A stretch of DNA of 59,853 nt, taken from Escherichia phage KS_A8. Below are positions 38,887 to 53,101 of the stretch, piece by piece. The position numbers and the translations under genes were made by a program. Positions within the stretch are counted from its first letter, which is position 1. Each line of letters starts with the position of its first letter. Under the pieces are notes generated by a model. That model was not told the origin of the DNA. It was given only the letters and a program-made list of their open reading frames with translations, and searched no databases. Location of the stretch: sequence record PP627279.1. One strand, written 5' to 3'.

Positions 38887-39759
38887 TTACTGCTGCCACG
38901 GCGGGACTGCTGCTTGTGCCGGATGCGGTTCAGCTTGCTGCTGTGGCTGCGCTTGCTGCTGCGGTGCCGCTGCCTGACCCGGCTGTGCTACCTGCTGCGC
39001 CCACGGCTGCTGAGATGCTTCCGGCGCTACTGGCTGTTGTACCGGAGCTTGCTGAACTGGCTGCTGTGGCGCTGCGTTTTGAGCAGGGTTATCCCACGGC
39101 TGCGGTGCGGCATTCTGCCACGGTTGAGCTGCTGCGCCCTGCTGCGGTGCTGGTTGCTGAACAGGCTGCTGTTGCTGTACCGGAGCTTGCTGCTGTACAG
39201 GTGCTTGCTGTTGCTGAGCAAACGGGTTAGCTGCTGGCTGCTGCGGTGCTGCGCCCGGGAATGCCGGCTGCTGTGCTGGCGCACCTGCACCGAACGGGTT
39301 AGCTACTGCTACTTGAGCACCCATTGATGGAGCCTCTGCTGCTTTTTCTGCATATTTAACCGGATCGTTAATGTTAGCATAACCGTTAGGCTCGTTGCTG
39401 TCTTCATAACCTTCCTGAGAACGAACTTTCAGACGCAGGTTCAGCGGAATGTTATGCAATTGAGCAGGAGTATCCCAGCGAATTACACCAACTGCATGAG
39501 ATAGAGCGCCCAGTTGCTCGTAAGCGATACGCACAGTATCTTCGTTGTCATTGATGACGTTATAACGAGCAAAGATTTTACGCCCTTTAGCAAAACCGTC
39601 AATGATGCTAAACGTTACCTGGATCGCCATACCGCCATTTTTGGTCGGTTTAAATTCAGATGCTTCAATTACTGCTTTATACCAACCTTTCGGCAATGCG
39701 CCGTAAGAAGGTGCTTGATAGCTGCTCGCGTCAAAGTGGAAATTAGTTGGCATAGTCAT
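38887..39759 (-). CDS. putative ssDNA-binding protein (DUF669-like) with Gln/Pro/Ala-rich tail
   Basis: 290 aa; globular ~140-aa N-terminal domain then low-complexity tail (QQPAFPGAAPQQPAANPFAQQQQAPVQQQAPVQQQQPVQQ...); next to Sak4-like ATPase and exonuclease. Confidence 0.35.
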   Translation of the reverse strand: MTMPTNFHFDASSYQAPSYGALPKGWYKAVIEASEFKPTKNGGMAIQVTFSIIDGFAKGRKIFARYNVINDNEDTVRIAYEQLGALSHAVGVIRWDTPAQLHNIPLNLRLKVRSQEGYEDSNEPNGYANINDPVKYAEKAAEAPSMGAQVAVANPFGAGAPAQQPAFPGAAPQQPAANPFAQQQQAPVQQQAPVQQQQPVQQPAPQQGAAAQPWQNAAPQPWDNPAQNAAPQQPVQQAPVQQPVAPEASQQPWAQQVAQPGQAAAPQQQAQPQQQAEPHPAQAAVPPWQQ

Positions 39760-46016: not shown

Positions 46017-46174
46017 TGTTCCCTCCGTTAACTTTATGCTGTAAGTATAGCAGGACTTGCGATGTATGCAACAACTTTAGACTTGAAATGCATCTATAAA
46101 ATAGCACGATTTGCCTTTACATCTGATCAGTCTAACTGTACTATTAACCCATAAACAGAGCGGAGGATTACAAA

Positions 46175-46403: not shown

Positions 46404-46430
46404 AAAGGGCCGAAAGGCCCTTTATTTATT
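46404..46430. terminator. bidirectional intrinsic terminator
   Basis: AAAGGGCC-GAAA-GGCCCTTT hairpin followed by ATTTATT. Confidence 0.55.
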
Positions 46431-48768
46431 CCTCTTCACCTAAGTTTGCCATAATTCCTTCAACATCTTGCGTAATGCGCCAAGCTGCCCCAGTAAATCC
46501 CAGTTTAATAGTCTCCTCCCGTGTTACCGGAACAAGTGCACCCATAGCAACCATCTCCTTGATTGTAGACTCGATTGCAGCGGATAATCCGTGATGATAG
46601 TTTTTAAACGCGGACTTACTTGCAAGACGCGTAGTAATATCGCCCCGCGTGATAATACCTTCTTTGCGCAAATCTACACGTTTAACTTTCACCCAGTCTT
46701 TAGTTAGATAATTCACACAGACCTGACACATAGTACGGATACGAGCTTCATCATTAGTCCCAATGCCTCCGCTATGCCATTCCTTCATAATAATATCCTG
46801 CCCATGACGCACGAAGTCCAAAGCCCATTGCACATGATAGGTTTGTACCACCGGATTGATCCAGTTCTCACCCACAGCTAACAAGGCAGAAAGTCGCAAG
46901 ACCTTTAGGTGAGCACGGTTCCACGGCTGACGAATCGCTTCGTCTTTGGTTGCGTTAATATTGCGATCACATTCATCGTTAAACTGATCGCATAATGCTT
47001 CCGCATCCGGGCTAAACTGTACTTCAATACTCTGATGCTTTGCCATTGTCACTAACGTGTGGTTAACGAGATGGCACACCATGTCCTTCAAATGCTGATC
47101 CATTGTAGTCTGCTGATTTTTGTTTAAAGGTGGTCGATCACCTTCATAGCGTACAACATGGAAACGGGATAAGAATCCATCCTCCATCATTTCACGGGTT
47201 AATGCTTCAAAGAACGTATCCGGTGTCGTTTCGCCCATGATGCTATATGCCACACCTTGTTGAGCTTCAGTATTATTAGCCTTATCAGAATAAGACATAC
47301 CACCAACGATAGACATCTGACCGGACTTTTGATAAACATCGGTAAGGTCATTCTTGAAACTTTGCATCGGCGAGCCTGCTGGAGCCGTTGCCATTGCTTT
47401 GATAATTTTACCGAACTCACCATTCAGGTTGATAAAAGATTGTTTGTCTGCAAAAGATTTACGCAGTGCAGATCCAGAAGCGCATCTATCAAAAGATACA
47501 AAGCTATGAATCTGCGGAAACTGGTCCTGAATCTGGCTAACTATATTAGACAGCCCACTGTTCAACGTCTCTTTACCAACACCAGAACGAGCAATTAAGA
47601 CAAAATATCCATTAAGACCGGATTGCGGGATCTGCCATACTTTCCCGCATACCCCAGCCATAAATCCGAGTGATGTAACAATAGAGATTTCTTTCACTGG
47701 TCTGACGGATGCTTTGTATATATATTTAGCAATCTCCCCAGCAAGCCCCGGCGGCCAGTCAATAGCTGTTGCATCAACGGATGTGCTTTCTGCAACTACT
47801 GTCTGCCCCTGTGTTGTTTCAACAGTTACGGGCATTTCCGCTACCTGCTGCATTGCACTGTGTGCAGCTTGCATACGAGCAGCATAATCCCGCGCCAGCG
47901 CCGCTACGTTTTCCTGGGCAATGCGCTCACGCTCCATGCGACCGCGACACATACGCAAGCAACGGTCAATATGAACATTGTTCTTATTAGCCTTCTCACG
48001 TTTGCCCAGCGCACTATAACGGAACAGACGGCGACATTGCTCATTACTTTCCGTGTAAAATGCATACATAGAAATAAGGGCAAGGTCTGCTTCAGACTGG
48101 GAAGGGAATCCCATTTCAACCCATTCACCATTAAATAACCGCGCATACTTATCGCCGTTATCTGCTTCAAGCGCACGCTGATGAATAGTTGCATCATCTT
48201 CTACCGGATCTTTTTCTACCAGTTCAATTTCATATGTCTTGCGCTGAAGATCAATTTCATTCACAAGCATAGTAAGGTAATGATCACGTTCTGCGACTGG
48301 TTTGTTGTAGACGGGATTGCCCGTGCAGATAATAAAACGCTCCTGACTATAAACCTCGACACCATCACGTCGACGACCTTTACCGATGTTACCTCTTAAC
48401 CACAGGTGAACACCCAGGCCTGAGCGACTCACTTCGGTGTAAGTATCGAACGCAGTCATGATCTGTTCGAAGCGGCGCAACTGATCCGGCGTCGTGTGCT
48501 TCTTGGGATCAGGTTCATTGGTTGCATTCTTCACATCCAGGTCGATGCAGGTGAACGGGTCTTGTGCAGTAAGCACGAATCCAATATAAGGTTTATTGAA
48601 ATGAGCGGCGCAACCTTTGGCAGCTTCAAACGTCATAAGCATATCCGGATCGGTAACGTCCGCCGCCATCAAACGTCCAATATCGCTATCCCATACCAAC
48701 GGCTTTTTATCCGCATCGGCGACCGCCCATTGTGGGAAAGCTTTAATTTCAGCGGGAAACAGTTCCAT
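46426..48768 (-). CDS. DNA primase/helicase (prim-pol-like N-terminus plus P-loop NTPase)
   Basis: 780 aa; N-terminal FTCIDLDVKN and SRSGLGVHLWL resemble prim-pol motifs; central Walker A LIARSGVGKET. Confidence 0.55.
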   Translation of the reverse strand: MELFPAEIKAFPQWAVADADKKPLVWDSDIGRLMAADVTDPDMLMTFEAAKGCAAHFNKPYIGFVLTAQDPFTCIDLDVKNATNEPDPKKHTTPDQLRRFEQIMTAFDTYTEVSRSGLGVHLWLRGNIGKGRRRDGVEVYSQERFIICTGNPVYNKPVAERDHYLTMLVNEIDLQRKTYEIELVEKDPVEDDATIHQRALEADNGDKYARLFNGEWVEMGFPSQSEADLALISMYAFYTESNEQCRRLFRYSALGKREKANKNNVHIDRCLRMCRGRMERERIAQENVAALARDYAARMQAAHSAMQQVAEMPVTVETTQGQTVVAESTSVDATAIDWPPGLAGEIAKYIYKASVRPVKEISIVTSLGFMAGVCGKVWQIPQSGLNGYFVLIARSGVGKETLNSGLSNIVSQIQDQFPQIHSFVSFDRCASGSALRKSFADKQSFINLNGEFGKIIKAMATAPAGSPMQSFKNDLTDVYQKSGQMSIVGGMSYSDKANNTEAQQGVAYSIMGETTPDTFFEALTREMMEDGFLSRFHVVRYEGDRPPLNKNQQTTMDQHLKDMVCHLVNHTLVTMAKHQSIEVQFSPDAEALCDQFNDECDRNINATKDEAIRQPWNRAHLKVLRLSALLAVGENWINPVVQTYHVQWALDFVRHGQDIIMKEWHSGGIGTNDEARIRTMCQVCVNYLTKDWVKVKRVDLRKEGIITRGDITTRLASKSAFKNYHHGLSAAIESTIKEMVAMGALVPVTREETIKLGFTGAAWRITQDVEGIMANLGEEE

Positions 48769-49989: not shown

Positions 49990-50657
49990 AAATCCTCCTA
50001 GTCAACTGGTGAAGCCACTATAAAACAGGCATTAGCTATTTGCAAGGATTGTTTTGATATAGTGCTTAGTGGCGTACATAGTGGAAAATTTGCGTATAGT
50101 ACGCGGTTACTAGCTTTGTAAAAGTTTGCCACTATAAACCACTATCTCACTATTCACTAATTTTTATTTTTACACAGAGCAAAGTTTATAAGTTTATGTT
50201 GCTCCCCTTAACCCCTTATGTAAATCTAAGAATTAGTAGTAGTAGTGAAAACGTGTAAATGCCACTATCACTACTATACTATTAATTCTCTAACATTTGG
50301 TGGGGTATACCCCCCTATAAACTTATAAACTTTCAGTCAACTAACTAAAATAAACCAAATTAAAATAATATTAATAATAAGTATAAATATATATAAAATA
50401 AGGATTTATTATTAATGTATATAGTACCTATTGGTATTATTTGACGAGTTTATGGTCATTATATAAACTCTATAAATTTTCATAAACCTGAACGGATGCA
50501 GATCAAAAATGAGAAGTCAAGTGCTTTTGAGGGAAATTTATTGAACTATTGTGATCGGAAGGTATATCAAGCTATAATGCGCTTAATCGCGGGATATTGG
50601 AGGAGGACTTTATTGCGCGGTTAACCGGACCAGTAGGAGGGCTGGCCCGGCAGAAGT
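49990..50657. promoter_or_regulatory. 668-bp AT-rich non-coding region with CCACTAT repeats, inverted repeats and an extreme AT tract (candidate origin/promoter array)
   Basis: No ORF with an RBS; at least six CCACTAT/ATAGTGG copies; 18-bp inverted repeat AAAGTTTATAAGTTTATG / CATAAACTTATAAACTTT about 125 bp apart; GGGGTATACCCCCC palindrome; roughly 80 bp of near-pure A/T (50340-50425). Confidence 0.4.
50017..50045 (-). promoter_or_regulatory. sigma70-like promoter for the leftward gene at 49989
   Basis: On the minus strand TTGCAA-N17-TATAGT, with the -10 formed by one of the CCACTATA repeats. Confidence 0.35.
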
Positions 50658-50986: not shown

Positions 50987-51163
50987 TTATTTCCTTACGA
51001 ACACAGAGCCGACGAATAATGTTGACTGAGTGGCAGCTTGCTCGATTAATTCGCCAACAAGCTGGGACTGCGTCAGAGGCTTGAGGCCTTCTTTGGCGCG
51101 AGCTTCATTTACACGACGTTGAAGGTCTTTTAAGTATTGAGTTGCGAAACTATCTAATTGCAT
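50987..51163 (-). CDS. small hypothetical protein (58 aa)
   Basis: Not in the ORF track (below 60 aa); ATG preceded by AGGAGTAACGAAA; stop lies 2 nt before the next start. Confidence 0.35.
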   Translation of the reverse strand: MQLDSFATQYLKDLQRRVNEARAKEGLKPLTQSQLVGELIEQAATQSTLFVGSVFVRK

Positions 51164-52225: not shown

Positions 52226-52438
52226 TCACTTAATTTGTACCAAATCGTATTCTTTGTAAATTTCGCTAATGTACATATCGAACTGACCCATTAAGAAGAT
52301 TTCGGCCTCCTCCCAGCTTGGGGCAGATACATAACCGGCTATTTTACCGGACGCGAGTTCCACTAATTTGAATTCCATGATGCAACCCTTAATGTGGTTA
52401 AGCAGTATTGCTTTGTTGAAGTAATAATAGCCTTGCAT
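52226..52438 (-). CDS. hypothetical protein (first leftward early gene)
   Basis: 70-aa ORF next to the divergent promoter region. Confidence 0.3.
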   Translation of the reverse strand: MQGYYYFNKAILLNHIKGCIMEFKLVELASGKIAGYVSAPSWEEAEIFLMGQFDMYISEIYKEYDLVQIK

Positions 52439-52589
52439 CGTGATATTGAATAGGCCAAAAGTGCGATTTTGATATTGTTTTGCATCTAGTGAAAATTATG
52501 CTTGCCATGCATATTTAGCACTAATGGCCTAACTAACATCACATTATCTGGCGTATTCGCGCGGGCGCACACATGCTTATAAGGTGGTG

Positions 52590-52715
52590 CCGGATCGACC
52601 AGGTGGGAGCGGTGCACAGGATCGACCAGGGGCATCCGGTGCCCTGCGTGTGCGGAGCCTACCAGGTGGAAGCAGCTCCTGCGTGTGCCGGAAATACCAG
52701 GGGCGCGCGAGCCCA
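52590..52715. repeat. GC-rich degenerate direct repeats in the divergent control region
   Basis: GGATCGACCAGG at 52592 and 52619; ACCAGGTGG at 52598 and 52671; ACCAGGGG at 52625 and 52696; CTGCGTGTGC at 52644 and 52679. Confidence 0.4.
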
Positions 52716-52756
52716 TGCACTTTACAAAATATTTTTATAAAAAGTGCAAAAAGGTG

Positions 52757-52785
52757 TAGACACATGATCGGTCTAGCACTACTAT
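52757..52785 (+). promoter_or_regulatory. sigma70-like promoter for the rightward block
   Basis: TAGACA-N17-TACTAT about 50 bp upstream of the 52838 start. Confidence 0.3.
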
Positions 52786-52837
52786 ATACACATACCGCAA
52801 GGGTACTACAAATTAACTAATTCACGGGGGGTACAAA

Positions 52838-53101
52838 ATGGTCCGCATCCTGGAACGTTATAAAAACGAAGCTACTGGCGCTATTGCATTCAAACGCATG
52901 TTAGTAAAACAAATCGACGGTTTATTCCGTGTCGTTAAAGAAGTCGATTACGGCAACGGCGCAGGGGTGAGCACCACTATCGTCCCGGGCATTAAAGCGT
53001 ATAAAACTTTAAAAGGGGCCGAGAAAGCCTTAGCCGCCTGGAAACCTGCTCGTTATCAATTGACCCGTGTCGAAGGGCTTATGCAGGAAGGTAAAATCTA
53101 A
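52838..53101 (+). CDS. hypothetical protein
   Basis: 87 aa, RBS GGGGGG. Confidence 0.35.
   Translation: MVRILERYKNEATGAIAFKRMLVKQIDGLFRVVKEVDYGNGAGVSTTIVPGIKAYKTLKGAEKALAAWKPARYQLTRVEGLMQEGKI

Follow-up and report, generated by a model that had tools for sequence, protein, structure and literature searches.

Comparison of the early control region of Escherichia phage KS_A8 with those of about 40 relatives indicates that the GC-rich island lying between the two divergent early units is a dispensable, fast-rearranging array of a conserved motif of about 20 bases and not a master switch of early expression, because the repeats are missing from many sister phages whose early promoters are the same. 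The window analyzed here is the whole 59,853-nucleotide stretch of record PP627279.1. It comes from a Seuratvirus (Queuovirinae) and every close match was found in this genus; over 0.9 kb at the locus, identity is 97.6% with Cronobacter phage CSP1 and about 94% with Escherichia phage CAjan. To the left of the island, small early genes lead to the replication genes (a primase-helicase at 46426-48768, a helicase and others), and to its right small early genes are followed by lysis genes, an order taken from the SA126VB record. A term search of the full texts of the Seuratvirus comparative-genomics paper and of the BASEL collection paper returned no description of these repeats.

Anatomy of the island and of its flanks

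The earlier note had listed several families of GC-rich repeats, and all of its strings are found where it placed them: GGATCGACCAGG at 52592 and 52619, ACCAGGTGG at 52598 and 52661, ACCAGGGG at 52625 and 52696, and CTGCGTGTGC at 52644 and 52679. They belong to a single family of four direct units of about 25 nt starting at 52587, 52614, 52650 and 52685 (Table 1). The units are spaced by 27, 36 and 35 bp, which does not keep them in helical phase, and they are unequal in length and mutually 62-79% identical (68-76% for units 2-4 compared with unit 1). The AT bias of the surrounding spacer is also borne out, with 67% GC in 52560-52715 against 36% in 52439-52559 and 35% in 52716-52837; most 1-kb windows of the genome have 40-50% GC. 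The arrangement is far from chance. The 59.8 kb contain four copies of the pattern [GT]ACCAGG[GT]G, all of them on the + strand and within 108 bp, for an expectation of about 1.3 genome-wide on both strands. Similarly, when up to 3 mismatches were allowed, a 20-nt pattern of the unit gave three matches, all in the island, where 0.34 were expected, and none of 100 shuffles reached three. The motif ACCAGGKGG proposed for scanning fits two units only, because the other two read ACCAGGGGC; the shorter ACCAGGKG fits all four.

Table 1 Features of the divergent early control region, with positions in the window.
Feature	Positions	Strand	Description
First leftward gene	52226..52378	-	50 aa, MEFKLVEL...; start moved from 52438
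25-bp inverted repeat	52440..52542		arms 52440-52464 and 52518-52542, 76% complementary; common core TAGGCCAWWAGTGC
Candidate leftward promoter TTCACT-N16-CAAAAT	52493 to 52466	-	between the inverted-repeat arms
GC-rich island, ~140 bp	52576..52715		GC 0.67 vs 0.36 in the flanks
Unit 1 GTGCCGGATCGACCAGGTGGGAGCG	52587..52611	+	ACCAGG core 52598-52603
Unit 2 GCACAGGATCGACCAGGGGCATCCG	52614..52638	+	core 52625-52630; followed by hairpin GGGCA-TCCGG-TGCCC, loop inverted in CAjan
Unit 3 GTGCGGAGCCTACCAGGTGGAAGCA	52650..52674	+	core 52661-52666; preceded by CTGCGTGTGC (52644-52653)
Unit 4 GTGCCGGAAATACCAGGGGCGCGCG	52685..52709	+	core 52696-52701; preceded by CTGCGTGTGC (52679-52688)
A/T-rich block with palindromes (TGCACTTT...AAAGTGCA; TTTTTATAAAAA)	52716..52756		kept with or without the island
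Rightward early promoter candidate TAGACA-N17-TACTAT	52757..52785	+	in every relative whose promoter region was read
First rightward gene	52838..53101	+	87 aa, phrog_27467

The promoter-like TAGACA-N17-TACTAT noticed earlier was located to the right of the island. It is kept even in Seurat and WildeMaa, although their upstream regions are otherwise unrelated, and the A/T-rich block occupies about -76 to -36 of this promoter, which we take to be UP-element-like. On the left side the first gene had been given a start at 52438, which lacks a Shine-Dalgarno sequence; position 52378, with AAGGG 8 nt upstream, is most likely the real start, and the true spacer is therefore 52379-52837. The 50-aa product is annotated or called likewise in CSP1, WildeMaa and metagenomic contigs. 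The arms of the 25-bp inverted repeat are at about +3..+19 and -67..-83 of the candidate leftward start, a geometry that looks like a pair of looping operators. This inverted repeat is present in every relative read that retains this left block, and a related pair is found in another spacer type (L264, L273 and STP-SP5). Because it is conserved and brackets the candidate leftward promoter, it would be a better operator candidate than the island. A sigma-70 matrix scan was too unspecific for placing promoters, as it gave 217 matches at a score of at least 8 genome-wide.

Three other features were recorded. A second promoter-like site, TTTACA-N17-TACTAT, is found at 46116-46144 (+); its spacer TCTGATCAGTCTAAC resembles that of the rightward early promoter, CATGATCGGTCTAGC, with GATC in both, and the two sites may represent a small family of promoters that share a conserved spacer. 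In WildeMaa (L015 1300-1576), and also in L270, a purine-rich untranslated leader of about 270 nt runs from TAGACA-N17-TACTAT to the first gene; the WildeMaa leader matched no Rfam family and resembled the island in 8-9-mers at most. Finally, positions 52832-52896, the 5' end of the 87-aa gene, are 89% identical in nucleotides to a gene within a Wifcevirus myovirus operon, which looks like a recent exchange between unrelated coliphage groups. Comparable repeats are absent from the Wifcevirus operon with this homologue.

Exact direct terminal duplications are deposited in two relatives, 3,695 bp in ECP2304 (L017 1-3695) and 3,424 bp in yong3 (L277 1-3424), and each includes the whole divergent early control region. 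Projected onto the window, the terminal repeat extends from about 50265 to about 54086, with the island lying inside this 3.4-3.7-kb repeat, about 2.3 kb from its left boundary and about 1.4 kb from its right one. As the window has one copy, the second was probably left out of the deposited record. We infer that terminally repeated phages carry the early control region twice per virion genome, 2.1-2.5 kb from the left end, together with the island where there is one, as in ECP2304; in yong3 the island is apparently absent. Direct terminal repeats are described in the Queuovirinae phage iggy (1,091 bp; PMC10484667), and those of Wifcevirus are about 3.7 kb (PMC6563267). The CAjan DpdA modifies G within GA, GGC and GGT (PMC10484667), so that GGA, AGGT and GGGGC of the motif would bear dPreQ0 in virion DNA. 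Beside the inferred left boundary of the terminal repeat there is a long A/T-rich non-coding region (49990-50657). All three genomic copies of GCCACTAT (50014, 50128 and 50261) and 7 of the 24 CACTAT/ATAGTG copies are found within 255 bp there, and this region is a candidate for terminus recognition or for an origin.

Variation of the array among relatives

The homologous spacer was read in 15 phage records and in 16 metagenomic or Logan contigs, and ten further phage records were classed from span lengths alone. The spacer consists of a conserved left block (52439-52575), a variable insert and a conserved right block (52716-52837). The island is an indel polymorphism at a single fixed site, between ...CATATAAGG and CAAAATATTTTTATAAAAAG..., all forms of the insert being bounded by ...CATATAAGG and CAAAATATT..., and the number of units among relatives is 0, 1, 2, 3 or 4. 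The island-less allele, CATATAAAGCTGCCAAAATA, was read in Skure, slur01 and contigs L019, L020, L023 and L265-L268; span length only places OddieOddie, RCIP0359, phiG7, SD04, PLYYY01, KurtStettler, KS_A3, KS_S4, SA80RD and yong3 in the same class. In all, about 20 relatives are without any unit (nine read, the others inferred) and retain the flanking blocks and TAGACA-N17-TACTAT, with aligned flanks about 92-98% identical. Blast matches to the island were obtained in nine phage records, at the same locus each time, and no copy was found in 5,426 complete E. coli genomes.

The inserts fall into four types, which differ greatly in sequence and are all GC-rich. Type A has four units in the window, CSP1, Dru_SM1, CAjan and L271, three in Greed and two in L021; CSP1C was assigned to it by a blast match only. 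Type B is represented by GottfriedDienst with four units, SLUR25 with three and an extra hairpin module, L022 with two and one inverted core, and, by a blast match only, SLUR63. Type C inserts measure about 80 bp and contain a single core (ECP2304, KS_W4 and SeppeHuegi), and L269 carries a type C insert plus one type A unit. Types A-C retain at least one intact core, while type D, known from the single example of SA126VB, has a degenerate core copy, CTACAGGAG, and half-sites only.

Shorter arrays are unit-precise chimeras: in Greed the left half of unit 1 continues into the right half of unit 2, and in L021 unit 2 is joined to unit 4. Two hairpin loops, each enclosed by short inverted repeats, have flipped exactly: GGGGCA[TCCGG]TGCCC in the window versus GGGGCA[CCGGA]TGCCCC in CAjan, and CCGGATC[TACCAGGGG]GATCCGG in SLUR25 versus CCGGATC[CCCTGGTA]GATCCGG in L022. 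The last bases of type B-D islands, GCTG(GT)CC, remain in the island-less alleles, and these look like deletions between short TAAG repeats. Presence and absence, chimeras and loop flips together indicate that the island is dispensable and that slippage or unequal recombination, together with template switching, accounts for its changes.

One part of the unit stays constant throughout this rearrangement. The consensus of 33 core-aligned units from 13 genomes is an asymmetric motif of about 20 nt, G-T-G-C-C-G-G-A-W-N-K-ACCAGG-K-G-S, in which ACCAGG and the G at -6 are invariant, the G at -11 and the A at -4 are nearly so, and columns beyond +8 vary freely. Among orthologous columns, 1 of 48 is variable in the core and 49 of 333 in the rest of the island (Fisher one-sided p=0.007); the sole variable core column is the L022 inversion. 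The core thus appears to resist substitution more than the remainder of the island, and we regard this test as moderate evidence and not as proof because the sequences are related, hence non-independent, and the p-value is modest. The core is also identical across units with differing flanks, which is not what homogenization of whole units is expected to produce. Inversions affect the motif itself: the half-site GACCAG/CTGGTC also forms an inverted pair in type C (CTGGTCCACGGACCAG) and the whole core is flipped in contig L022. Such flips fit a site in duplex DNA better than a strand-specific RNA motif, which would not tolerate them.

Candidate roles of the array

The best-supported account, which we hold tentatively, is that the island is an accessory array of duplex-DNA recognition sites upstream of both early promoters, modulating or titrating something nearby, kept in some lineages and freely lost in others. 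It would be an accessory cis-element made of tandem 27-36-bp GC-rich units, each with one asymmetric motif of about 20 bp (GYGCCGGAWNK-ACCAGG-KG), placed in a promoter-free spacer upstream of the two divergent early promoters, and it would evolve through unequal recombination or slippage that respects unit boundaries, with template switching at its short palindromes. Protein binding, the kind of protein and the resulting effect are the parts that we infer: the working form would most likely be double-stranded DNA, the motif would be the recognition site of a sequence-specific protein of the host or of the phage core, and the array would recruit or titrate several copies of this protein beside the early promoters, so that early expression would be modulated and not switched. 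This account is favored by four same-strand units whose core is found nowhere else in the genome, by the invariant core, by GC-richness across types, by the tolerated inversions and by the lack of a folding signal or an Rfam match. Against it are the irregular helical phasing and the absence of a linked regulator within +/-1.5 kb, and any function of the island must be non-essential since about 20 relatives do without it. Moreover, unit loss, fusion and inversion are also expected of a neutral minisatellite.

A functionless hypermutable minisatellite is accordingly a close rival and nearly as likely. GC-rich quasi-palindromic units would then grow, shrink in number and flip through slippage and template switching in a spacer that tolerates insertions, and the shared core would reflect recent common descent and homogenization and not selection. 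The presence or absence of the island and its 0-4 copies among close relatives are consistent with this, as are the chimeras with exact unit boundaries (Greed units 1 and 2, L021 units 2 and 4, L269 with its type C insert and type A unit), the two hairpin-loop inversions, island-less alleles resembling TAAG-repeat deletions that leave GCTG(GT)CC, and the lack of a partner gene (within +/-1.5 kb) and of a host copy. It accounts less well for a core significantly more conserved than the remainder of the island and shared by units whose flanks differ, for 67% GC held across diverged types within a spacer of 36% GC, and for the retention of the island in all eight genomes with the second left-flank haplotype.

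The earlier note had taken the repeats for operators through which one regulator would control both divergent early units. The part of this claim that stands is a conserved, asymmetric, repeated motif, of the sort expected for a recognition site, located between two early units. The array is however dispensable, unfixed in copy number (0-4) and away from the promoters: relative to the predicted rightward start it occupies -77 to -216, and relative to the leftward candidate -117 to -256, with no overlap of any predicted promoter element. Nor are the repeats conserved wherever the promoters are, for about 20 repeat-less relatives (nine read, the rest inferred) share the same promoters and leaders and others have 1-4 units, and the rightward promoter persists in Seurat and WildeMaa despite a wholly different spacer. 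With the conserved 25-bp inverted repeat around the candidate leftward promoter as a better fit, we consider operator function of the array quite unlikely. When all ORFs up to 1.5 kb on either side of 29 loci were screened, no co-occurring regulator gene was found; linked to the island were only spurious ORFs overlapping it and whichever gene comes first after the rightward promoter, of 87 aa or 67 aa, the 67-aa gene being present in one island-less contig too. Further into the early genes, 50987-51163 (-) encodes a 58-aa protein whose sequence pattern, read as a short N-terminal strand and two helices (...LTQSQLVGELIEQA), by eye resembles that of ribbon-helix-helix DNA-binding proteins. Phages that have an island and phages that lack one both carry it.

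It is also unlikely that the island acts as RNA, that is as a + strand transcript from the left block whose leader or small RNA would show the motif or GGA to an RNA-binding factor. RNAalifold analysis of the three type C variants gave, on the + strand, six one-sided changes that keep pairs via G-U and two that break them, and, on the minus strand, five broken pairs and a positive covariation term. This pattern may lean weakly to the + strand, where no compensatory pair changes were found in type C. GGA is about two-fold enriched on the + strand, and a promoter-like TTGATA-N16-GAAAAT lies upstream at 52469-52496. Its weak hexamers are however variable, reading TTAGAA in CAjan and GAAAAA in Greed, a genome-wide scan with the promoter matrix finds 217 sites that score as well or better, no terminator was found after the island, one L022 core is inverted, and GGA occurs mostly within CCGGA. 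Compared with dinucleotide shuffles, island folding gave z values of -1.9 to +1.1 in 12 of the 13 variants on both strands, no better than the shuffles; in the exception, L022, complementarity is created by the inversion itself. For a 205-nt stretch, the mildly negative z (about -2) is due to flanking CGCGCG and A/T hairpins. Rfam searches with the whole window (gathering threshold) and with the locus and eight related loci (E<=1-10) gave only a chance snoRNA-like match far below threshold. Shuffle-level folding, the lack of compensatory pairs on the type C + strand and the lack of an Rfam family do not support a structured non-coding RNA. Our literature search returned no transcriptome study of Queuovirinae.

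Still less probable is an auxiliary replication origin, in which the four units would be iterons of the primase-helicase and the A/T-rich palindromic block an unwinding element. Direct repeats do adjoin an A/T-rich block, and the phage encodes a 780-aa AEP primase fused to a helicase-like C-terminal part; primase-helicase fusions include self-loading initiators in other elements. Many relatives, however, lack the island, the spacing is irregular (27/36/35 bp), and the non-coding region at 49990-50657 is another repeat-rich, A/T-rich region, upstream of the replication genes. In addition, the genus has two primase-helicase alleles, which share 98-99% and 76-78% identity with that of the window, and each occurs with type A islands, with type C islands and with no island. 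The initiator and its putative iterons therefore do not co-vary, and the independence of these alleles from the type of early region indicates frequent recombination between modules. We give similarly little credence to the array being an accessory decoy, with high-affinity sites in DNA or in an early transcript that titrate a host DNA-binding factor within the first minutes after infection. The terminal repeat would supply two copies per genome, and the target would be a host regulator or a defence protein; if so, gain, loss and copy number of the island would track the hosts met by the phage.

Several other identities were tried and rejected. A CsrB-like sponge for CsrA would agree with the GGA enrichment, but the context is wrong and there is no folding signal: four of the six GGA triplets have no preceding purine and three come after C, and CCGGA is a poor context for CsrA. 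Coding was rejected because ORFs spanning the island cross the promoter and lack conservation, the ATG at 52573 having no counterpart in CAjan. A dispersed element of the REP/BIME type does not agree with a single locus in the window and in phage records and with the lack of an E. coli match, and tandem RNA repeats like those of type III antitoxins do not agree with units of unequal length that are 62-79% identical and not near-identical. As every core contains CCAGG, a link to Dcm/EcoRII was considered; CCWGG shows no depletion and no other clustering genome-wide, with 40 and 44 sites where 48 and 57 would be expected. A scan for three ACCAGGKG cores 25-39 bp apart gave more than 120 matches each in viral and bacterial collections, in taxa unrelated to enterobacteria, and was uninformative.

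Relation to known repeat systems

The island adds one more example to a familiar kind of feature. Like lambda OR/OL, it places several sites of about 17-20 bp between divergent early phage units. The lambda sites are dyad-symmetric, overlap promoters, are fixed in number and have a linked repressor gene, whereas the direct repeats of the island are asymmetric and come no closer than 77 bp to either start site, in 0-4 copies and with no linked regulator within +/-1.5 kb. Iterons (lambda ori, P4 ori/crr, SaPI ori and RSF1010 oriV) share with it same-strand repeats of about 20 bp by an A/T-rich segment and an encoded primase-helicase. They are usually regularly phased, essential in cis and co-evolving with their initiator, in contrast to the 27/36/35-bp spacing of the island, its dispensability and its lack of co-variation with the primase-helicase allele. 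REP/BIME elements are likewise short, GC-rich, imperfect non-coding palindromes of variable copy number with hairpin-driven rearrangement, but they are dispersed in the genome, alternate in orientation and depend on a RAYT transposase, while the island has one locus and direct orientation. ToxI and phage pseudo-ToxI are also intergenic in phages, with tandem units of about 36 nt whose copy number varies among isolates; their repeats are near-identical, A/U-rich, transcribed and pseudoknotted, unlike the 62-79% alike, GC-rich units without folding signal found here. Short-repeat arrays associated with phage terminal repeats are exemplified by T7 SRL/SRR and by the repeat region of the T5 terminal repeat. 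The island is also within a terminal repeat, to judge from two relatives, yet it is interior and not at the end, with no link to packaging or DNA entry. Elsewhere in the window, dense degenerate GCTGC-rich direct repeats at 38898-39253 lie inside the gene 38887-39759 (DUF669 protein) and are probably a low-complexity coding repeat.

These results indicate that conspicuous repeats between divergent early promoters need not be operators, and in this case natural deletion variants show that they are dispensable. The two loop inversions and the unit-precise chimeras are clean phage examples of template-switch and slippage mutagenesis. The natural alleles with 0, 1, 2, 3 or 4 units in otherwise near-identical control regions constitute a ready allelic series for whatever function the conserved non-coding motif may have, if any, in a group of virulent coliphages used in phage-host screens (BASEL collection). 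Without a real binding partner the element would be an ordinary one; such a partner, if real, would represent a new early-infection interaction.
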